Source of the DNA: a virus
Lineage: Duplodnaviria > Heunggongvirae > Uroviricota > Caudoviricetes
Direction: 5' to 3' (one strand)
IMG/VR virus record: IMGVR_UViG_2718218128_000006
Coordinates: 1 to 8,997 of that record
DNA length: 8,997 bases
The number at the start of each line of letters is the position of its first letter. Position 1 is the stretch's first letter. The notes under the pieces are model-generated. The model had not been told where the DNA came from, did no database searches, and saw nothing but the letters and a program-made list of their open reading frames with translations. Both the position numbers and the translations under genes were made by a program. Below, one piece after another: positions 1 to 8,997 of this stretch.

Positions 1-29
1 GATAGCTCCTCCTGACAAAAACAGGAACG

Positions 30-440
30 ATGCCATTTGCGCGCTATTTCTGCATTTTCATAAACGTTGGTTTGGGAGAAGCGGCAAAACGGGATGTGGG
101 CACAGGGGAAAATCAGATACCGGACATGGTTTCATTTAGTGGGGTGAGGGATTTTTACGGAAAACAACTTTTGCCAGGAGGGTTGATACTCCAGTGGCTG
201 ACGATTCCATCAAGTGCAGCAGCCAAAGCTGTAACACTGAATAATGGTAATTATCAGCTGTCAGGTTATAAATGGCCCCAGTCATTTGGTGTCCTGTTTG
301 CTGTGTTTGCCACAAAAGTTTCTGGCTCGACTAACGAAGCATACGCAATCTCAGTTAATCGTCACTCTACCGATGTAATTGTCACCTGGAATGCCCGTAA
401 GGCTGATGATGTCCACATTTTAGGAATTGGGAAATTATGA
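30..440 (+). CDS. Alternative (currently silent) tail-fibre C-terminal cassette; genuine homology starts at about 67, and codons 30-66 are only open read-through upstream of the crossover site
   Basis: Encodes [21 protein letters not shown], identical to a stretch of the minus-strand fibre (1232..1888), then diverges. Promoterless in this orientation. Stop TGA 438-440 overlaps the next start (ATGA). Confidence 0.55.
55..80. other. Putative 26-bp invertase crossover site (hix/gix/pix-like), left
   Basis: TTTTCATAAACG-TT-GGTTTGGGAGAA: imperfect palindrome with an AAACG/GGTTT core around central TT; 21/26 identical to the reverse complement of the right site. Confidence 0.5.
67..128. repeat. 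Left copy of the 62-bp inverted repeat flanking the invertible segment
   Basis: Reverse complement of 1538..1599 with one mismatch (position 101, paired with 1565). Confidence 0.85.
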
Positions 441-856
441 AAATGAAATGGTCCCCATCTGTTCAGGGATTTTTCTCTGAAAACAACAGTGATATTCCCG
501 ATGATGCTTTCGATATTGAAGATGCTCTTTATTATGAACTTATGAATGGTCAGAGTACTGGGAAAATTATTATCAATAGCCCGGATAACTACCCTGTACT
601 TACTGAATATCCAGCGAAGACACAGGAACAGGAAATAGCTGAAGCGGAGGGAATGAAAAATATACTTATTGAACAAGCCAACGATTATATGAACAGTAAA
701 CAATGGCCTGGTAAAGCGGCTATTGGCCGGCTGAAAGGTGAGGAACTGGCGCAATATAATTTGTGGCTGGATTACCTGGACGCACTGGAACTGGTCGATA
801 CTTCCGGTGCGCCAGATATTGAATGGCCTACGCCGCCGGCAGTTCAGGCCAGCTAA
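437..856 (+). CDS. Tail fibre assembly protein (Tfa chaperone) of the alternative cassette
   Basis: 139 aa; C-terminal [16 protein letters not shown] matches the conserved Tfa C-terminal signature; ATG 437 is coupled to the upstream cassette stop. Confidence 0.7.
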
Positions 857-1223
857 TCTCAGGAGCCGTCGAAGTGTCGACGGCTTTTACTTCTTTTTTG
901 TAGTCCATCCAAGCAGATAGTTTTTCTTTATCTGTACTGCTGATATCACCAAGCATTAATTCCACTCGCCAGTCAGCTGTGACATTATCGGCATGAGCAA
1001 GTAACTGCATTCGCTGATTTTCCGCACGTGCGACATAATCAATCGCCGGGGATTTTAATACCGGTAAACCATTTTTATCTGACGTAATTAATTTACCCCC
1101 TTCCTGCTGTCCGGCAATTAATTCATTGTATAAGTCTGTACATATCTCAACAATGTCAGCAGGCATGTCACTGTTTATACCATCGAAGAAAAAACCATTA
1201 GTCGATTTTGAGAAATAAATCAT
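828..1223 (-). CDS. Tail fibre assembly protein (Tfa chaperone) of the currently expressed cassette
   Basis: ATG at 1223-1221 lies 8 nt after the fibre stop (TAG, 1234-1232); C-terminal [15 protein letters not shown] Tfa signature. The ORF-track start at 1253 is a TTG inside the fibre gene and was not used. Confidence 0.75.
   Translation of the reverse strand: MIYFSKSTNGFFFDGINSDMPADIVEICTDLYNELIAGQQEGGKLITSDKNGLPVLKSPAIDYVARAENQRMQLLAHADNVTADWRVELMLGDISSTDKEKLSAWMDYKKEVKAVDTSTAPEISWPELPAA
863..899 (+). terminator. Intrinsic terminator-like hairpin (9-bp perfect stem, 4-nt loop, T-rich tail) downstream of the alternative tfa, embedded in the opposite-strand tfa coding sequence
   Basis: AGCCGTCGA-AGTG-TCGACGGCT followed by TTTACTTCTTTTTTG. 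Confidence 0.5.
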
Positions 1224-1231
1224 AGATATAC

Positions 1232-1888
1232 CTATACACCGATTGCTACCCAAAAACAGGACCTTTCATATTTGACAATTTCTCCCTGAGATATACCGCC
1301 AACAATTATATAGAACTGTGATTTGCTGATATCAGAACAGTTCGCTATGCCCATTGCAGATATACCCGCCACCGACGTTGTATGTGGTACAGCCAACAGC
1401 GCAAGTGAACGATTTGGGAATGTTACCGGGTAAGTCACCGTATAGTTTGATGCTCCACTGACTATACCCCACTGAATAATCAGACCTGAAGGGAGTTTTT
1501 GAAAACCCGTTGATGAAAGTGAACTGGCAAACGCCGCCATGTCCGGTATCTGATTTTCCCCTGTCCCCACATCCCGTTTTGCCGCTTCTCCCAAACCAAG
1601 GTTTTCGAGAGCCGTTTTCACCGTGCCATCCGATTTGATATCACCAAACGGATTCTTGCGGCTTAACAGCAGGGCACGAAGCGCGGTAAGCAACTGGTCG
1701 TTTCGCCCCTTCTCCAGGCTGGCACCGGATGCCTCCACCACGCTGCAAAGCTCCTCCTGCAACATATCAAAGTAGTCATCATCCAGATTGGTAGCAGGTG
1801 TGCCAGTCTGGGGGTTACCACGGGTAAAACCGTTCTTACCCGCGCCGAACTTATCCTTCTGCGCGGTTTTCGTGTCTATACGATGCAT
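1232..1888 (-). CDS. Tail fibre protein (218 aa): constant N-terminal part (codons 1-96) fused to a variable C-terminal part inside the invertible segment
   Basis: ATG 1888-1886 with GGAG 8 nt upstream; N-terminus [20 protein letters not shown]...; residues 97-117 are encoded by the inverted repeat shared with the alternative cassette. Confidence 0.8.
1538..1599. repeat. Right copy of the 62-bp inverted repeat flanking the invertible segment
   Basis: 61/62 identity to the reverse complement of 67..128; encodes [21 protein letters not shown] in the expressed fibre. Confidence 0.85.
1586..1611. other. Putative 26-bp invertase crossover site (hix/gix/pix-like), right
   Basis: TTCTCCCAAACC-AA-GGTTTTCGAGAG; its 12-bp core AAACCAAGGTTT is the same as the hixL core as I recall it; lies inside the fibre coding sequence at the constant/variable boundary. 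Confidence 0.55.
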
Positions 1889-1891
1889 GGA

Positions 1892-2476
1892 TTACTCCGG
1901 ATATTTAAAAATTACGTAGGTATGCGACGGGCAGAGTTTGTTAAGCACACATTCGACAACGGTGTCGCCCCAGATACGCAGCGCGGAATCACAGGGATCG
2001 CCACATGTCATCCAGGTGGTGTTTGTGGCGGCTGGCATGTTGACCTGCCAGTAATACCGCCATTCCGGCGCATTCACCGCGTCAGTACAGGCCGATGAGC
2101 AGGTGAACGTGCGTTTGTCGTATCGCGTGATGGTAGCGTCTGGTCTGCCCAGGGCAGCAAGCTGTGCAAGATAAAAATTCTCGTTGATGCCGCCCGCCAG
2201 GTTAACCTTCGCATCCAGCCGTTGCTGACGCTGGCGAAGGGTCTGTGTCCCTGCGGGAATACATTCATCCGGCAGACCGCACAGACGCTCCCAGCGGTTT
2301 ATCAGTTCAGTGGTGGTGCGCGGATCCAGCTCCCGCATCAGGGCATCCGCACGCTGATGAACGCGGGTTAATGACGGTGCCGCACCGGCAATCGCCGGAT
2401 CGCTGGCTGACCACGCCGGACCGGGGGGCAACAGTGCCGACAACAGACGGATGTAATCATCGTTTGTCACGTCCAT
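1892..2476 (-). CDS. Phage tail protein, DUF2313 / YmfQ-like (Mu gp48-like), 194 aa
   Basis: Length and position between a baseplate J-like gene and the fibre gene, as in the e14 tail module; stop is 3 nt before the fibre start. Family assignment is from memory, not searched. Confidence 0.65.
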
Positions 2477-3525
2477 GAAATCGTCCCCAGTACCGCCAGT
2501 TCATTTTTTGCAATGGAGATATTGTCTGCCGGTGCAAGCAACTGATGGCTGTATTCCCCGTTCGCACCGGAAATCGCCTCACTGATACGCGATACCTTCA
2601 GTTCTCCCTGCGGATAACCATCACGCAGCAGGAGCGAACGCAACTCCGCGGTGATGGCAGCCCGTATTTCCGGTGTGTCCGGCGTCACGCGGATATGAAA
2701 ATCCACCGTATGTGCCACCGGCCTGAACACATACAAATCAGAGCCTGCCACCGGGGCCAGTGGCCCGATATGTTGTCTTGCCGCCGTTTCCGTTGATTCT
2801 TCCGGAATGGGATTAATCAGGTCACTGCTGGCAATCATCACACCGACAGTTCCCGTTCCCATCCAGTGACGGTATGTCCATGCGCGGGTAATGCCGGGCA
2901 CTTCTTTAGCCCAGACGACATAGTCCCCGTCAGCCCCACCCTGCGGCGTCCAGTAATACCGCTCAATGACGCGGGCGCGCCACGTTTCCAGCTCTTCAGT
3001 ATCAAATCCGCCTGTCAGGGTGTCAGCCACACCAGAAGACGGCAGACCATTCACCGGCGTGACCAGGATTAATGCCATACCGTCGTCAGCGTTACCGACC
3101 GCGCCTGCATTTGAGCAGGCGATCGGCACGCGCAGGACACCACCGGAGCTGGTTGCATCGGCAGTTGCCGTGTACTGAACCAGGTCATCGCGCTGAATAA
3201 CACTCCCGGCAGTCACCTTCAGGCCATCGCTGACACCTTCCCAGCGCATATACCCGCTGGCAGCCGTGGCCCCCTTGCGCGGACACCGTTTCATCGCAGC
3301 ATGTCGCGCCAGCCAGGACTCATCGCACAGGTCAGGCAGCATGTTCATTGCCAGATAATCGATGTACCCGTAAACCGTATGCAGCGCCGCCGCATACACC
3401 TTTGCCCGCACGTCTTCATCCATGCGCCGGAGCGTGTCGCTGACGTCCAGCCTGGCGAATAAATCGTTACGGAGCATACTGATATTTTCTGCCAGCGTCG
3501 GGCGCTGAAATTCACTGTCCGCCAT
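2467..3525 (-). CDS. Baseplate J-like protein (Mu gp47 / P2 gpJ family), 352 aa
   Basis: ATG 3525-3523; overlaps the downstream gene start by 10 nt; Gly/Asp-rich central region typical of baseplate J proteins; GC-rich codon usage unlike the accessory genes to its right. Confidence 0.7.
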
Positions 3526-3883
3526 GCGTTATCGCACTCCACAGATCATCAAAAGAAATCATTACCGGTCCGTCACGACGCCAGAGGGTGATACTGTTAC
3601 CCAGTTCATTAATCCCGGTGCGGCGGATATCCAGATCAATACGGGACACCACGCCGTCATCAATCATCCATTGCAGGCATTCGCGGATATACCCCCTTAC
3701 CGTCAGCACCAGCTGATTGGTCAGTTTGCTGCGCTGAAGCAGCCACAGTCGGGAGCCGTAACGGTCATTCTGTACCGCAGGCCAGGTAACCGCGGGAAAA
3801 TTTCCGAAGAAGACACCACCGAAACGCCGATGTATGTCAATCGCGGTGGTCGCCTGACTATTCTGCAGGAAGAACAGGGACAG
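3512..3883 (-). pseudogene. Remnant of an upstream baseplate gene (possibly GPW/gp25-like); 124-codon open frame with no ATG, and only one GTG (3709-3707) that would give a 65-aa product
   Basis: Frame is open from the in-frame TAA at 3886-3884 down to 3512 and overlaps the J-like start by 14 nt (operon-style), but the first 58 codons contain no canonical start codon. Confidence 0.35.
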
Positions 3884-3939
3884 TTACTGACTCTTGCCGG
3901 TGAACCTGACGGAAAACTCCGCGCAGCAGGTCGTTAATA

Positions 3940-3990
3940 TCGTTTTTAATTAACTGATTATTTATCTCATCACTGAATATCTTTATATAG
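3940..3990 (+). promoter_or_regulatory. Putative promoter region for the accessory/xis/int operon (AT-rich, sigma70-like hexamers)
   Basis: TTAACT (3950..3955), a 18-19 bp spacer, then TGAATAT / TATATA upstream of the GAGGA RBS; hexamer assignment is uncertain. Confidence 0.2.
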
Positions 3991-4002
3991 TGAGGACTTA
4001 TT

Positions 4003-4827
4003 ATGTCTCAGAACTTAGACGCAACCGCAATTAATCAAATCCATGCCCTTATTTCTGCTCAGGGTGTTAATGAAATTATCAGTAAGATTGGTGCCGATGC
4101 TGTGGCATTGCCTGAGAATTTCCGCATTCATGATCTGGAAAAATTTAATTTAAATCGCTTCCGTTTCCGTGGTGCGCTTTCCACTGCCAGCATCGATGAC
4201 TTTACCCGTTATTCTAAAGATCTTGCAGATGAAGGCACCCGCTGCTTTATCGATGCTGATAATATGCGTGCCGTCAGTGTGCTTAACCTGGGTACTATTG
4301 ATGAACCAGGTCACGCAGATAACACCGCCACACTCAAACTGAAAAAGACAGCACCGTTCTCTGCTCTGTTGTCTGTTAACGGCGAGCGTAACTCCCAGAA
4401 GTCACTAGCAGAATGGATTGAAGACTGGGCCGACTATCTTGTGGGCTTTGATGCTAATGGTGACGCTATTCAGGCAACAAAAGCGGCTGCGGCTGTCCGT
4501 AAAATCACGATTGAAGCAAACCAGACCGCTGATTTTGAAGATAATGACTTCAGCGGCAAACGCTCCCTGATGGAGTCTGTCGAAGCGAAGACCAAAGACA
4601 TTATGCCAGTGGCATTTGAATTTAAATGCGTTCCGTTTGAAGGTCTGAAAGAACGTCCGTTTAAATTACGCCTCAGTATTATCACTGGCGATCGTCCTGT
4701 ACTGGTTCTGCGCATTATTCAGCTGGAGGCGGTGCAGGAAGAAATGGCTAACGAATTTCGTGATCTGCTTGTTGAGAAATTCAAGGACAGCAAAGTAGAA
4801 ACCTTTATTGGTACTTTCACCGCCTGA
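4003..4827 (+). CDS. Prophage accessory protein, YfdQ-like (DUF2303), 274 aa
   Basis: ATG 4003 with GAGGA 6 nt upstream; first gene of a same-strand cluster whose lengths (274/178/120/101 aa) match my recollection of K-12 yfdQ-yfdR-yfdS-yfdT. Confidence 0.6.
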
Positions 4828-4839
4828 TTTCATTACTGC

Positions 4840-4861
4840 AAATGCCCCTGCGGGGGCATTT
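4840..4861 (+). terminator. Short hairpin just after the YfdQ-like stop (9-bp stem AAATGCCCC / GGGGCATTT, loop TGCG); weak terminator or attenuator candidate
   Basis: Perfect inverted repeat directly readable in the sequence; lacks a strong downstream U-tract. Confidence 0.25.
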
Positions 4862-4954
4862 ATGGAAACGTAATTTACTCAATAATCGCCGGATGGTGAG
4901 GGATTCTTTTTACCAGAATTCAGCGCGGTGCAGCGCATATACGTGGAGAACAAA

Positions 4955-5491
4955 ATGTCATTTATTAAAACTTTTTACGGGAAGCATTTTTATTATGACA
5001 GGATAAATAAAGACGACATCGATATTAACGATATCGCGGTTTCCCTTTCAAATATCTGTCGCTTTGCCGGTCATCTTTCGCACTTCTACAGCGTCGCCCA
5101 ACATGCGGTTCTTTGCAGCCAGCTGGTGCCGCAGGAATTTGCTTTTGAAGCGTTAATGCATGATGCAACAGAAGCGTATTGCCAGGACATTCCCGCACCA
5201 CTGAAACGCCTTCTTCCTGACTATAAACAAATGGAAGAAAAAATAGACGCCGTAATCCGTGAGAAATACGGGTTACCCCCAGTTATGAGTACGCCCGTGA
5301 AATATGCCGATCTCATCATGCTGGCAACCGAACGCCGCGATCTCGGGCTTGATGATGGCTCTTTCTGGCCTGTACTGGAAGGTATCCCGGCAACAGAGAT
5401 GTTCAACGTGATTCCACTGGCACCGGGCCATGCCTACGGGATGTTTATGGAACGCTTTAACGAGTTATCGGAGTTACGCAAATGCGCATGA
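4955..5491 (+). CDS. HD-domain phosphohydrolase, YfdR-like (5'-deoxynucleotidase family), 178 aa
   Basis: ATG 4955 with GGAGAA upstream (preferred over the GTG at 4928, which lacks an RBS); HD motifs in SVAQHAV and LMHDATEAY (HD codons at 5159..5164). Confidence 0.75.
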   Translation: MSFIKTFYGKHFYYDRINKDDIDINDIAVSLSNICRFAGHLSHFYSVAQHAVLCSQLVPQEFAFEALMHDATEAYCQDIPAPLKRLLPDYKQMEEKIDAVIREKYGLPPVMSTPVKYADLIMLATERRDLGLDDGSFWPVLEGIPATEMFNVIPLAPGHAYGMFMERFNELSELRKCA

Positions 5492-5844
5492 ATGTTTTCG
5501 AAATGGAAGGGTTTCTTCGTGGGAGATGTGTACCGCGAGATCTGAAAGTAAATGAAACAGATGCTGAATACCTAGTGCGTAAATTCGATGCGCTTGAAGC
5601 TAAATGTGCAGCACAGGAAAACAAAGTAATACCAGTGTCAACTGAACTGCCACCAGCAAATGAAAGTGTTTTGTTATTCGATGCTAACGGAGAAGGCTGG
5701 CTAATTGGCTGGCGTTCTCTCTGGTACACCTGGGGACAAAAAGAAACCGGAGAATGGCAGTGGACATTTCAGGTCGGGGACCTTGAAAACGTCAATATCA
5801 CTCACTGGGCAGTAATGCCAAAAGCACCGGAGGCTGGAGCATAA
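5482..5844 (+). CDS. DUF551-family prophage protein, YfdS-like, 120 aa
   Basis: ATG 5482 with GGAG 8 nt upstream; overlaps the preceding stop by 10 nt; C-terminal W-rich region ending ITHWAVMPKAP is typical of DUF551. Confidence 0.6.
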   Translation: MRMNVFEMEGFLRGRCVPRDLKVNETDAEYLVRKFDALEAKCAAQENKVIPVSTELPPANESVLLFDANGEGWLIGWRSLWYTWGQKETGEWQWTFQVGDLENVNITHWAVMPKAPEAGA

Positions 5845-6149
5845 TGACCACTTTTACCGACAAAGAACTGATTAAAGAAATTAAAGAGCGTATCAGCAGC
5901 CTTGACGTGCGAGACGATATTGAGCGCCGTGCTTATGAAATCGCACTCCTATCTCTGGAAGTAGAACCAGATGAACGCGAAGCTTATGAATTATTCATGG
6001 AAAAGCGTTTCGGTGACTTAGTAGATCGTCGGAGAGCAAAAAACGGCGATAACGAATACATGGCATGGGATATGACTCTCGGTTGGATCGTCTGGCAGCA
6101 ACGAGCTGGTATCCATTTTTCAACAATGTCACAGCAAGAGGTGAAATAA
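5844..6149 (+). CDS. Small prophage early protein, YfdT-like, 101 aa
   Basis: Start overlaps the upstream stop (TAATG at 5842-5846); GGAG 4 nt upstream; stop overlaps the xis start (TAATG at 6147-6151). Confidence 0.5.
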   Translation: MTTFTDKELIKEIKERISSLDVRDDIERRAYEIALLSLEVEPDEREAYELFMEKRFGDLVDRRRAKNGDNEYMAWDMTLGWIVWQQRAGIHFSTMSQQEVK

Positions 6150-6499
6150 TGGAGCCATACAGCCTCACACTCGATGAGGCCTGTCATTTTCTCAAGATAT
6201 CCAGACCGACTGCCATTAACTGGATACGCACAGGGCGTCTTCAGGCAACACGCAAAGATCCCACTAAGAATAAATCTCCTTACCTCACAACACGACAAGC
6301 CTGCATTGCGGCTCTTCAGTCTCCGCTGCATACTGTCCAGGTGAGCGCGGGTGATGGCATAACAGAGGAAAGAAAATGTCACTCTTCCGCAGAGGTGAAA
6401 TATGGTACGCCAGTTTCACATTGCCGAACGGTAAAAGATTTAAACAGTCTCTTGGAACAAAGGACAAAAGGCAGGCGACAGAACTCCATGACAAGCTAA
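6149..6499 (+). CDS. xis: Excisionase / recombination directionality factor (P22 Xis-like, 116 aa, HTH)
   Basis: ATG 6149 with AGAGGTGA upstream; N-terminal HTH-like [26 protein letters not shown]; lies immediately upstream of int and overlaps it out of frame. The ORF-track start at 6065 lacks an RBS and lies inside the upstream gene. Confidence 0.7.
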
Positions 6500-7539
6500 A
6501 GGCTGAAGCATGGCGGGTCAGCAAACTTGGTGAAATACCTGATATAACGTTCGAGGAAGCGTGTGTCAGGTGGCTTGAAGAGAAAGCACATAAAAAATCA
6601 CTGGACGATGACAAAAGCCGGATCGGATTCTGGCTTCAACATTTCGCAGGAATGCAACTAAGAGACATTACTGAATCAAAAATTTATTCAGCAATGCAGA
6701 AAATGACGAACCGGCGTCATGAGGAAAACTGGAAACTCAGGGCAGAAGCATGCAGAAAAAAAGGGAAACCTGTTCCAGAATACACGCCAAAACCAGCGTC
6801 CGTTGCAACGAAGGCTACGCATCTTTCATTTATAAAGGCCCTACTAAGAGCCGCAGAGCGTGAATGGAAAATGCTGGATAAGGCACCAATTATTAAAGTG
6901 CCCCAACCAAAGAATAAACGGATCCGCTGGCTGGAGCCCCATGAAGCACAAAGGCTGATTGATGAATGTCCGGAGCCATTAAAGTCTGTTGTTGAATTTG
7001 CACTGGCAACAGGCCTAAGACGCTCGAACATCATCAACCTTGAATGGCAACAAATAGATATGCAGCGCCGGGTGGCATGGATAAACCCGGAAGAGAGTAA
7101 ATCAAACCGCGCAATTGGCGTTGCGCTGAATGATACTGCATGTCGCGTATTGAAAAAACAAATCGGGAATCATCACCGTTGGGTATTTGTGTACAAGGAA
7201 AGCTGTACCAAACCAGACGGAACGAAAGCGCCAACAGTCAGGAAGATGCGGTATGACGCAAACACAGCCTGGAAAGCGGCGCTGAGACGGGCTGGTATTG
7301 ATGATTTCAGATTTCACGACTTGAGACACACTTGGGCAAGTTGGCTGGTTCAAGCCGGAGTCCCGTTGTCAGTGTTACAGGAAATGGGAGGCTGGGAGTC
7401 TATCGAAATGGTTCGTCGATATGCTCACCTTGCACCTAATCACCTTACCGAACACGCACGGCAAATAGACTCGATCCTAAACCCATCGGTCCCAAATTTG
7501 TCCCAGTCAAAAAATAAGGAAGGTACTAATGATGTGTAA
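6376..7539 (+). CDS. int: Site-specific tyrosine integrase (P22-type Int), 387 aa
   Basis: GAGGAA RBS; C-terminal catalytic signature [10 protein letters not shown] ... RRYAHL (H-x-x-R and Tyr); ends 14 nt from the tRNA-Thr 3' end. Resemblance to P22 Int is recalled, not searched. Confidence 0.9.
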
Positions 7540-7553
7540 CTTATTGATTTAAA

Positions 7554-7629
7554 TGGTGCCGATAATAGGAGTCGAACCTACGACCTTCGCATTACGAATG
7601 CGCTGCTCTACCAACTGAGCTATATCGGC
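7554..7629 (-). tRNA. thrW: tRNA-Thr, anticodon CGU, 76 nt including the encoded CCA
   Basis: Minus strand reads GCCGATATAGCTCAGTTGGTAGAGCAGCGCATTCGTAATGCGAAGGTCGTAGGTTCGACTCCTATTATCGGCACCA; folds as a cloverleaf by eye; anticodon CGT corresponds to 7594..7596. Confidence 0.9.
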
Positions 7630-7670
7630 CCTGAAAGGACATGTTCACGAACGTGAATCACGGTGGACAA

Positions 7671-7746
7671 GGTTAAAACTAACCGGGCGATGCGTCAATG
7701 GCCTTGTGAATCAAATGGCTACTTTTGCATCACCCGGTTTTATTTA
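7671..7746. terminator. Bidirectional terminator-like hairpin between thrW and proA (13-bp stem, one G-U pair, 33-nt loop)
   Basis: Arms 7681..7693 (AACCGGGCGATGC) and 7727..7739 (GCATCACCCGGTT); U-rich tails on both strands (TTTTATTT on plus, AGTTTTAA on minus). The loop is long for a classical terminator. Confidence 0.35.
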
Positions 7747-8997
7747 CGCACGAATGGTGTAATCACCAATGCCGATCCACTTGTAAGTGGTCAGTGCTTC
7801 CAGCCCCATTGGGCCACGCGCGTGGAGTTTTTGTGTGCTTACCGCCACTTCCGCACCCAGACCAAACTGGCCGCCGTCGGTAAAACGCGTAGAGGCGTTA
7901 ACGTAAACAGCGGACGAATCCACTTCGTTAACAAAACGCTGGGCGTTGCGCATATCGCGGGTCAGGATCGCATCGGAGTGTTGTGTGCCGTGTTCACGAA
8001 TATGGGCGATGGCATCGTCAAGATCGCTGACGATTTTAACGTTCAAATCTAATGACAGAAATTCATCGTCATACTCTTCGGCTTTAACCGCCACCACCTT
8101 CGCAGGGCCTGTCTGCAACTGCGCCAGCGCAGCTGCATCTGCGTGTAATGTCACGCCGCTTTCCGCCATTTGTTTGCTTAATGCGGGCAGGAAGCTATCG
8201 GCGATGTTTTTATTCACCAGCAACGTTTCTACCGTATTACATGTGCTCGGTCGCTGAGTTTTCGCGTTGACGATCACTTTTAATGCTTCAGCGATCTCTG
8301 CGCTTTCATCAACGTAAATATGGCATACGCCTATACCACCTGTGATCACCGGGATTGTCGACTGTTCGCGGCACAGTTTATGCAAACCAGCCCCGCCGCG
8401 CGGGATCAGCATGTCGATGTATTTATCCATACGCAGCATTTCACTGACCAGCGCACGGTCAGGATTATCAATCGCCTGCACGGCACCCGCCGGTAAGCCA
8501 CAGGATTTCAGGGCGTCCTGAATCACCGCCACCGTTGCCGCGTTAGTGCGACAGGTTTCTTTGCCACCACGCAGGATCACCGCATTACCGGTTTTCAGGC
8601 ACAGCGAAGCGACATCAACCGTCACGTTCGGGCGCGCTTCATAAATCACGCCAATCACCCCCAGCGGCACGCGACGACGCTCAAGACGCAGGCCGCTGTC
8701 CAGTACGCTGCCATCGATTACCTGCCCCACCGGATCGGCGAGGTTACACACCTGGCGCACATCATCGGCAATGCCTTTCAGCCGTGCGGGCGTCAGTGCC
8801 AGACGGTCAAGCATCGCTTCGCCAAGGCCATTGGCACGCGCGTCAGCAACATCCTGGGCGTTAGCGTTGAGGATGATTTCGCTTTGTGCTTCCAGTTCAT
8901 CGGCGATTTTTTCCAGCACGCGATTTTTTTCGCGGCTGGAGAGTTGCGCTAATTTATACGAGGCTTGCTTCGCGGCAATGCCCATTTGTTCCAGCAT
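7744..8997 (-). CDS. proA: Gamma-glutamyl phosphate reductase (glutamate-5-semialdehyde dehydrogenase), full length, 417 aa
   Basis: ATG at the window edge (8997-8995); protein [20 protein letters not shown]... matches enterobacterial ProA as I recall it; the window ends exactly at its start, so proB should follow. Confidence 0.95.

Follow-up and report, generated by a model that had tools for sequence, protein, structure and literature searches.

A gp46 remnant joined to a yfdP remnant in an apparently defective SfIV/SfV-like prophage at thrW

The window analysed here, a stretch of 8,997 nucleotides (positions 1 to 8,997 of the IMG/VR virus record IMGVR_UViG_2718218128_000006), carries baseplate and tail fibre genes on the minus strand directly beside early genes, an excisionase and an integrase on the plus strand, which raises the question of how these two modules came to adjoin each other. 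An earlier note on this DNA had proposed an internal deletion that joined the tail and baseplate module to the integrase-proximal early module and left the baseplate gene upstream of J truncated at its N terminus and without a start. Comparison with intact relatives, BLAST and alignment bear out both proposals: the scar is, with high confidence, that of an internal deletion of ~28 kb in an SfIV/SfV-like (e14-type) prophage at thrW, in which a truncated gp46 was joined to a truncated yfdP. The features of the window are collected in Table 1.

Table 1. Features of the window, with the support for each
Feature	Position	Strand	Extent or support
Tail fibre gene, 218 aa	1232..1888	-	PF21882 Gp53-like_C
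Mu gp48 / YmfQ-type baseplate gene, intact, 194 aa	1892..2476	-	PF10076, E=1e-26
Baseplate J / Mu gp47-type gene, intact, 352 aa	2467..3525	-	PF04865, E=7e-52
gp46-type baseplate wedge gene, 3' remnant	3512..3788	-	codons 51-141 + stop; Pfam, PHROG, protein alignment
Chimeric ORF, 137 codons	3524..3937	+	88 codons antisense to gp46 + last 49 yfdP codons, in frame
Deletion junction	3787..3788	none	base-by-base three-way alignment and BLAST end points
yfdP early gene, 3' remnant (SfIV orf34 region)	3787..3937	+	codons 72-120 + stop
Frame extension into antisense yfdP, 32 codons	3789..3883	-	DNA 100% yfdP
Native yfdP-yfdQ intergenic spacer, 65 bp, GC 0.23	3938..4002	+	matches intact relatives
yfdQ (DUF2303)	4003-4827	+	Pfam; RefSeq name in intact yfdP locus (L002); full length
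yfdR (HD 5'-deoxynucleotidase-like)	4928-5491	+	Pfam; RefSeq name in L002; full length
yfdS	5482-5844	+	RefSeq name in L002; full length
yfdT	5844-6149	+	RefSeq name in L002; full length
Excisionase (HTH_17)	6065-6499	+	Pfam; SfIV excisionase, 99.7% identity
Tyrosine integrase, 387 aa	6376-7539	+	Pfam; SfIV integrase, 99.7% identity
thrW, tRNA-Thr (CGU), attachment site, attL side	7554..7629	-	ARAGORN; RefSeq neighbourhood
proA	7744-8997	-	adjoins thrW

When the window is aligned base by base with intact loci for gp46 (L001) and yfdP (L002), identity switches at 3787/3788. Sequence up to and including 3788 is derived from gp46 and sequence from 3787 onward is derived from yfdP, and the overlap is a 2-bp microhomology, TA (…CCAGG-TA-ACCGC…), common to both parental sequences, with no longer homology between them at the crossover in this three-way alignment. 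BLAST of positions 3300–4300 likewise splits in two, with query segments 1–489 (gp46/J) and 488–1001 (yfdP/yfdQ), and the end points on the window scale are 1585–3788 and 3787–8997; comparison with related intact prophages, STEC1575 and SfIV among them, confirms the same breakpoint. The earlier note had set the boundary at a minus-strand TAA at 3886–3884, a codon that is present as described; the real boundary lies inside the open frame, and that placement was about 97 bp too far to the right. The misplacement arose because GC content falls only from the spacer onward, ~150 bp past the true junction, the yfdP and gp46 remnants both having a GC of 0.54, and the GC profile was rejected as a junction locator. 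The lower GC of the plus-strand accessory genes is itself real, J having a value of 0.58 and yfdQ one of 0.46.

The minus-strand frame upstream of J is, as had been described, open for 124 codons from 3883 to a stop at 3514–3512, and it overlaps the J start by 14 nt, which is the usual overlap for these two genes. The part of it below the junction matches Pfam family PF07409 (GP46; E=5.5e-20, 71.6 bits versus a cut-off of 28.6) at profile positions 28–100/101 only and phrog_180 ('baseplate wedge subunit', E=5e-33) at profile positions 59–147/148 only; the family match is significant, yet coverage of the domain is incomplete at its N-terminal end. Full-length homologues have 141 residues, of which the window retains 51–141, with no gp46 similarity upstream of residue 51 in the protein alignment. 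The suspected loss of the N terminus is real, and amounts to residues 1–50 together with the start codon and ribosome-binding site. The remaining 32 codons, at the upstream end of the frame, had been counted as part of the same gene; they are antisense to yfdP, not derived from gp46, and open by chance, the probability that 32 random codons are stop-free being ~0.2.

The earlier note had also described the frame as having no ATG and a single GTG two-thirds of the way in. It has two ATG codons, at codon 73 (3667–3665) and codon 108 (3562–3560), and three GTG codons, at 59, 78 and 79. Of the canonical starts, GTG codon 59 (3709) comes first, about halfway along the frame; it is equivalent to residue 77 of the full protein, and the ORF that begins there (3709–3512) has 65 aa and is without over half of the GP46 domain. 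As for the surrounding gene order, gp47 follows as usual, and the gp45 gene, which normally precedes gp46, is absent from the window; J, gp46 and gp45 are complete in 1,093 of the 1,103 genomes carrying this gp46. The gp46 piece is a gene fragment and not a working family member. A deletion hotspot within gp46, suggested by the thrW prophage of strain EC812A1, which also breaks there, was rejected, since the gene is intact in 99% of the genomes carrying it and the breakpoints are not the same.

On the other side of the junction, alignment with the 120-aa YfdP of STEC1575 recovers residues 72–120, the N-terminal 71 codons and the gene's own start being absent; the RefSeq annotation 'yfdP: protein YfdP' underlies this match in thousands of E. 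coli genomes. The plus-strand ORF at 3524–3937 listed in the earlier note is present, and real homologues exist only for its last 49 codons, the YfdP C terminus, a result that makes the deletion reading more exact rather than refuting it. In agreement with this, phrog_17027 and phrog_204 match only residues 83–137 of the ORF, which has no Pfam family and no PHROG family beyond the YfdP tail, and the exact protein is recorded only once, in Logan contig SRR28568604_210. The ORF is a product of the deletion, a chimera spanning the junction.

The 116-bp AT-rich stretch that had been treated as a unit consists of the yfdP 3' end (3887–3937) and the native spacer, which holds a Shine-Dalgarno-like GAGGA ahead of the yfdQ ATG and belongs to the early module rather than to the scar. 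Over the 216 nt from 3787 to 4002 the yfdP remnant and spacer are identical to STEC1575 and differ from SfIV by one mismatch. Two motifs in the spacer (3954–3966 and 3973–3985), put forward as possible binding sites, agree at 9/13 positions; an equally or more similar pair of 13-mers occurs in 86% of shuffles of the 65-bp spacer (n=2,000), and the proposal was dropped because the similarity is no better than chance. A single weak terminator-like hairpin lies on the minus strand at 3832–3817, which is the rate expected by chance in a scan of 3300–4300.

The genes on either side of the scar place the element among known prophages. The J gene has the same length as in intact prophages, and its exact protein is present in intact prophages (L010–L013) whose contigs carry an intact tail module that is 99.5–99.9% identical to the window, on the tail side only. 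The 3' part of the tail fibre gene falls within a Pin-type invertible segment, 2 kb from the junction, with an inverted-repeat arm at 1537–1604. Toward the other end, the yfdQ-yfdT block (4003..6149) is 99.7% identical to SfIV orf30-33, and the integrase and excisionase read toward thrW beside proA, the tRNA-Thr(CGU) lying 14 nt past the int stop. The layout is the same in the prophage of E. coli STEC1575, also at thrW: proA-thrW-int-xis-yfdTSRQP come first, immunity, replication, lysis, head and tail genes lie beyond them, gp46-gp47-gp48-fibre-pin close the series, and a 47-bp repeat of the 3' end of thrW marks attR. SfIV-type phages are known to integrate in thrW (PMC3851460). Two thirds of a defective SfIV/SfV-like prophage, those nearest attL, are covered by the window, and the element belongs to the SfIV/SfV lineage at thrW only as a defective remnant. 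The phage concerned is a mosaic of the SfV/SfIV/e14 type, with lambdoid early genes, an HK97-like head and a Mu-like contractile tail, and not a lambda-type siphovirus, as had been supposed.

In the intact STEC1575 prophage the two breakpoints are 28.5 kb apart. In SfIV they correspond to 27010 and 15111, which puts the loss at ~27.9 kb, or 70% of the 39.8-kb genome; it comprises orf35-54 and orf1-16, passes through cos, and is bounded by yfdP codon 71 and gp46 codon 50. The content of this interval in STEC1575 and SfIV upholds the earlier proposal that regulation, replication, lysis and capsid functions were removed: it includes the immunity genes (ymfK/cI-like, ymfT/cro-like), replication genes, RusA, the Q antiterminator, the lysis cassette, the terminase, portal, protease, capsid and connector genes and, from the tail module, the genes for the sheath, tube, tape measure, circularisation protein, gp44/P-like and gp45/V-like proteins as well as the first 50 codons of gp46. 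The early side is 99.7% identical to SfIV at the DNA level over 3787–7599; the tail side is 96.8–97.2% identical to SfIV, 97.0–97.5% to SfI, SfII, SfIV and SfV over 1585–3788 and ~98% to STEC1575, and the exact parental phage is not among the relatives compared. As judged from gene content, the remnant would no longer be able to be induced, replicate, lyse or build particles, and the tail genes and yfdQRST-xis are probably without native transcription signals because the early-left and late (Q-dependent) promoter regions were deleted. None of the evidence contradicts a deletion.

An identical junction is found in three other assemblies, Logan SRR28568604, GCA_016678895.1 and Logan ERR3328749. 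Three other collections lack it: in BLAST of 3300–4300 against 5,426 complete E. coli genomes no single record spans both sides of the junction, and exact scans gave 0 matches in GTDB species representatives (34-mer) and 0 matches in a metagenome contig collection (24-mer). Such rarity would suit an assembly artefact, a chimeric mis-join of one intact prophage or of two prophages with no deletion in the cell. This explanation deserves almost no credence, however, as the junction occurs at 100% identity in three assemblies from different pipelines, of which SRR28568604 may be the window's own source sample; in GCA_016678895.1 it sits in an 86-kb contig, between chromosomal flanks, with 100% identity over window positions 1–4263; and GCA_016678895.1 and ERR3328749 carry a further, nested deletion of 894 bp from yfdQ/yfdR, as expected of an inherited chromosomal state. 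In GCA_016678895.1 a 64-bp copy of the thrW 3' end (94%) lies 6.4 kb beyond window position 1, and this attR end holds a pin fragment together with GmrSD-like and Type ISP-like genes; inspection of this end showed no gtr O-antigen genes.

The deletion would have occurred by illegitimate recombination, in one or more events, that joined a point in yfdP to a point in gp46, probably independently of RecA and by a process such as replication slippage or end-joining. A 2-bp microhomology does not discriminate between slippage, end-joining and topoisomerase-mediated joining, and since the final junction is all that can be seen, a single event looks no different from a series of nested deletions. A dedicated recombination system, whether a since-departed IS, the prophage's own Pin invertase using pseudo-sites or Int using a secondary att site, might be considered in view of the nearby invertible segment and of the IS1- and IS5-associated rearrangements of the same prophage in other strains, but is very improbable: position 3787/3788 shows neither an IS sequence nor terminal inverted repeats nor a target duplication, the flanks bear no likeness to the 68-nt inversion arms in a repeat search, the STEC1575 loci have no match to the thrW core close to the junction, and only 2 bp are common to the parental sequences at the crossover. 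The event was probably recent, since all 277 nt of gp46 origin recur unchanged at the 3' end of an intact gene in one relative (L011), as do the 216 nt of yfdP remnant and spacer in STEC1575.

It could be argued that the remnant is a functional, selected element, with gp46 shortened to 65 aa from the internal GTG or with a functional protein encoded by ORF 3524–3937, given that J, gp48, the tail fibre, yfdQRST, xis and int are still full length, that at least a small lineage has kept the scar and that defence-type cargo (GmrSD-like, Type ISP-like) is present at the attR end in GCA_016678895.1. We consider this extremely unlikely. The sequence is identical to intact relatives, which leaves too little time for selection to show, and the lineage keeps losing DNA, as the 894-bp deletion indicates; no sigma-70-like promoter was found in a scan of 3300–4300, the 65-aa ORF is without most of its domain and the chimeric ORF without a family of its own, and no sheath, tube, hub or spike genes are left to which a baseplate could attach. 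A very improbable alternative is that the deletion is one of several independent, convergent ones that strip the thrW prophage of its killing functions and keep both ends, int/xis with yfdQRST at one and fibre/pin with defence-type cargo at the other, which would make the element a selected, possibly still excisable, domesticated island and the 137-aa ORF possibly a newborn expressed protein. Under the preferred reading, a deletion scar in a decaying prophage, the contents of the scar are non-functional debris: a start-less gp46 fragment, a head-less yfdP fragment and two accidental frames that cross the junction. The scar is real and is a case of ordinary prophage decay.

The main consequence is for annotation. 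Gene fragment or junction chimera, and not hypothetical protein, is the proper label for the 124-codon frame, for the GTG ORF of 65 aa and for the plus-strand ORF of 137 aa, and the element should be named a defective SfIV/SfV-like prophage remnant. The exact junction makes a clean marker of the lineage, being found in a few draft assemblies and in none of the 5,426 complete E. coli genomes. With the later loss of 894 bp, the locus also illustrates, on a small scale, how a prophage decays stepwise through microhomology-level deletions, and it opens no new biological question.

The closest known systems are SfIV and SfV and, with them, SfI and SfII, serotype-converting temperate myoviruses of S. 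flexneri. The integrase, excisionase and orf30-34 (yfdT-S-R-Q-P) are shared with 99.7% identity to SfIV and 99.1% to SfV, and the Mu-like gp46-gp47-gp48-fibre baseplate block (~97%) and the thrW site beside proA are shared as well. The window differs in being without ~70% of the phage genome and in that its tail fibre ends in an e14-type invertible segment instead of the SfIV fibre end; the attR end in GCA_016678895.1, for its part, has the pin fragment and the GmrSD-like and Type ISP-like genes, with no gtr genes seen. A homologous yfdP-yfdQ-yfdR-yfdS-yfdT block, 98.2% identical over window positions 3787–4300, is found in the cryptic prophage CPS-53 (KplE1) of E. coli K-12. KplE1 resides at argW, has IntS/TorI and a different late region, and only the early-left accessory block is known to be in common.

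Large internal deletions also affect other thrW prophages of this family, in strains 41, EC812A1 and Z1323PEC0013, which have int-xis-early genes at one end and baseplate-fibre-pin genes at the other. Each has its own breakpoints, none of them equivalent to 3787/3788: truncated yfdR to truncated gp44 in strain 41, truncated ymfT to truncated gp46 (window-equivalent 3690) in EC812A1, and ymfL to fragments of the circularisation-protein gene and J in Z1323PEC0013. The cryptic prophage e14 of E. coli K-12, at icd, is of the same phage type, with the immunity genes ymfK, ymfT and ymfL, with ymfQ and with a stf/tfa/pin invertible fibre segment, and it has undergone similar decay, which has left scars annotated in RefSeq: YmfN is a 'chimeric replication protein/phage terminase' (oweE/aaaE), and a beeE portal fragment abuts the jayE baseplate-J pseudogene. 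The integration site, integrase and breakpoints of e14 are different, and whereas in e14 the immunity region survives and most genes for head and tail are gone, the remnant in the window lost immunity too and kept J intact.

In the gene map of the window, assembled from an ORF listing, Pfam scans and a tRNA search, the scar of an internal deletion lies between the baseplate J gene and yfdQ. A megablast search of window 3300-4300 against 5,426 complete E. coli genomes returned two families of matches, one covering query positions 1-489 and annotated as phage GP46 family protein and baseplate J/gp47, the other covering 488-1001 and annotated as yfdP and yfdQ; no single record among these genomes spanned both query parts. 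Aligned base by base with one intact locus each of gp46 and yfdP, the window matches the gp46 parent up to 3788 and the yfdP parent from 3787 onwards, the parental sequences having in common only the dinucleotide TA at the crossover. Since parental identity switches there, the junction is placed at 3787/3788. The observation of the earlier note is partly confirmed: its interpretation as an internal deletion is correct in essence, but the junction is approximately 97 bp to the left of the boundary that it had drawn. As it reported, the minus-strand frame 3883..3512 runs for 124 codons without a stop, is bounded upstream by a TAA (3886-3884) and overlaps the start of the J gene by 14 nt, and GC content falls from 0.58 in J to 0.46 in yfdQ, with 0.23 in the 65-bp spacer. 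Its description of the frame as devoid of ATG, with one GTG two-thirds of the way in, was inexact, as there are in-frame ATGs at codons 73 and 108 and GTGs at 59, 78 and 79, of which the GTG at codon 59 is the earliest canonical start.

Features of the window by position and strand
Feature	Position	Strand
Fibre/tfa cassette ORFs	30-440, 437-856	plus
Fibre/tfa cassette ORFs	828-1253, 1232-1888	minus
Tail fibre gene	1232-1888	minus
Mu gp48/YmfQ-type gene	1892-2476	minus
Baseplate J/gp47 gene	2467-3525	minus
yfdQ (DUF2303)	4003-4827	plus
yfdR (HD-type 5'-deoxynucleotidase-like)	4928-5491	plus
yfdS	5482-5844	plus
yfdT	5844-6149	plus
HTH_17 excisionase	within 6065-6499	plus
Tyrosine integrase	6376-7539	plus
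tRNA-Thr(CGU) thrW	7554-7629	minus
proA	7744-8997	minus

As listed, with 144 aa counted from 6065, the excisionase ORF shares 85 nt with yfdT and 124 nt with the integrase gene; its start differs among public annotations (116 aa versus 144/147 aa), as does that of the integrase, which is given 387 aa in SfIV and 372 aa in RefSeq E. coli.

The baseplate frame thought to be start-less indeed lacks its N-terminal part: the window keeps residues 51-141 of the 141-aa gp46 protein, the Pfam GP46 match being limited to profile positions 28-100 of 101 and that to PHROG 180 ('baseplate wedge subunit') to 59-147 of 148. The upstream 32 codons of the frame (3789-3883), read earlier as part of the same remnant, are antisense yfdP and not gp46; the chance of a 32-codon run without a stop is about 0.2. 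Read on the plus strand, 3787-3937 is the 3' end of yfdP (residues 72-120 of a 120-aa protein), and the 137-codon ORF 3524-3937 is an in-frame fusion of 88 codons of antisense gp46 with this tail. The earlier note had held that real homologues of this ORF would speak against a deletion; they exist for the YfdP tail, the PHROG matches being confined to residues 83-137, and not for the antisense-gp46 part. The AT-rich stretch, previously treated as one unit of the scar, includes the native yfdP-yfdQ intergenic region (the 65-bp spacer, 3938-4002), which is identical in E. coli STEC1575 and differs by one mismatch from SfIV. The two similar motifs proposed as binding sites have 9 of 13 positions in common, and an equally similar pair occurs in 86% of spacer shuffles; no sigma-70-like promoter was found in 3300-4300.

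The STEC1575 prophage, apparently complete and located at the same thrW site, has the order proA, thrW, int, xis, yfdT/S/R/Q/P, an ECs1072-family gene, ymfK (LexA/cI-like), ymfT (cro-like), ymfL, replication genes, RusA, KilA-N, Q, holin, endolysin, spanins, HNH, terminase, portal, protease, capsid, connectors, sheath, tube, tape measure, circularisation protein, baseplate gp44-like, gp45/V, gp46, gp47, gp48, fibre, tfa and pinE, and attR is marked by 47 bp repeated from the 3' end of thrW. The two breakpoints, approximately 28.5 kb apart in this genome, flank the immunity, replication, lysis and head genes, as had been anticipated. Among isolated phages SfIV is the most similar, followed by SfV, SfI and SfII; thrW is the integration site of SfIV-type phages, and the Int/Xis and orf30-34 cluster is common to SfIV and SfV (PMC3851460). 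On the SfIV map the breakpoints are at 27010 and 15111, so that, relative to that phage, about 27.9 of 39.8 kb are lost, comprising orf35-54, orf1-16 and the initial third of orf17. Identity to SfIV is 99.7% over 3787-7599 and 96.8-97.2% over the tail block (1585-3788), and the fibre cassette (1-1584) has almost no match in Sf phages; given the unequal identity of the two sides, together with the nearly unmatched cassette, the parent was a mosaic relative of SfIV and not SfIV itself.

The exact chimeric protein occurs in one record, a Logan contig of SRR28568604, which may be the window's own source sample and is 100% identical to window 3356-5731. An exact look-up of the J protein revealed the scar in two more assemblies, GCA_016678895.1 (L009) and Logan ERR3328749 (L014); contigs L010-L013, which it also retrieved, have an intact tail module whose gp46 is 141 aa long and which matches the window at 99.5-99.9% identity. 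L009 comes from an 86-kb contig that includes chromosomal sequence on both sides, and it matches window 1-4263 at 100% identity. Both L009 and L014 have an additional 894-bp deletion (window 4264-5153), with TAAT at 4260-4263 and 5150-5153 as its 4-bp microhomology, that truncates yfdQ, by its 3' two thirds, and yfdR, in its 5' part; this shows that the remnant is decaying stepwise. The 277 gp46-derived nucleotides are identical to the intact gene in L011, and the 216 nucleotides of yfdP' and spacer to STEC1575. The junction had no exact matches in GTDB species representatives or in metagenome contigs. Since the scar recurs in further assemblies, two of them with a second deletion, and its fragments are undecayed compared with intact relatives, it is a genuine, inherited and presumably recent chromosomal state of a small lineage in which DNA loss continues.

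No IS sequence, repeat or similarity to att or Pin sites was found at the junction, where the sole homology is the 2-bp microhomology. The deletion most probably arose by RecA-independent illegitimate recombination at TA, through slippage, end-joining or topoisomerase error, a generally known class among whose members the data do not discriminate; a single event and nested successive events leave the same visible junction and cannot be distinguished. Both the immunity region, which has the early promoters, and the region of Q and the late promoter fall within the deleted interval, so that the surviving tail genes and yfdQRST-xis would be deprived of their native transcription signals, and the element would be incapable of replication, lysis and particle assembly.

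Near the left end of the window, a 68-nt inverted repeat (62-129 and 1537-1604, 97% complementary) encloses segment 130-1536, a tail-fibre/tfa cassette with alternative fibre C-termini; it is an invertible segment of the e14/Mu G type. Relative to the window, the inter-arm stretch is reversed in the ENA contig L011 (11922-13464); the segment has therefore inverted in nature. Next to it, the resolvase/Pin gene has just 63 aa in L009-L012. In L009, the DNA directly left of window position 1 (13526-19948) carries, between the truncated pin and an attR-like copy (64 bp) of the 3' end of thrW, two genes encoding a 629-aa protein with GmrSD_N/GmrSD_C domains and a 1058-aa Type ISP restriction-modification-like protein, a defence-type cargo in place of the gtr O-antigen genes of SfIV.

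Internal deletion is a common fate of the thrW prophage. Independent deletions with breakpoints that are all different are present in three more complete E. coli genomes, all of which retain the int-xis-early genes and the baseplate-fibre-pin end: strain 41 (L005 8327-8738) fuses yfdR' to gp44'; EC812A1 (L006 4975-5334) fuses ymfT' to gp46', at a position unlike that in the window, and also has IS5 copies; and Z1323PEC0013 (L007 5125-7194) fuses ymfL to circularisation-protein and J fragments. The idea that gp46 is a deletion hotspot was rejected, J-gp46-gp45 being intact in 1,093 of the 1,103 genomes with this gp46 gene. The scar is a further case of a well-known feature type, useful for annotating the region correctly and as a marker of the lineage. 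The related cryptic prophage e14 of E. coli K-12 (L015 9171-11923) has RefSeq-annotated deletion scars of the same kind, namely ymfN, a 'chimeric replication protein/phage terminase' (oweE/aaaE), and a beeE portal fragment overlapping the baseplate-J pseudogene jayE.
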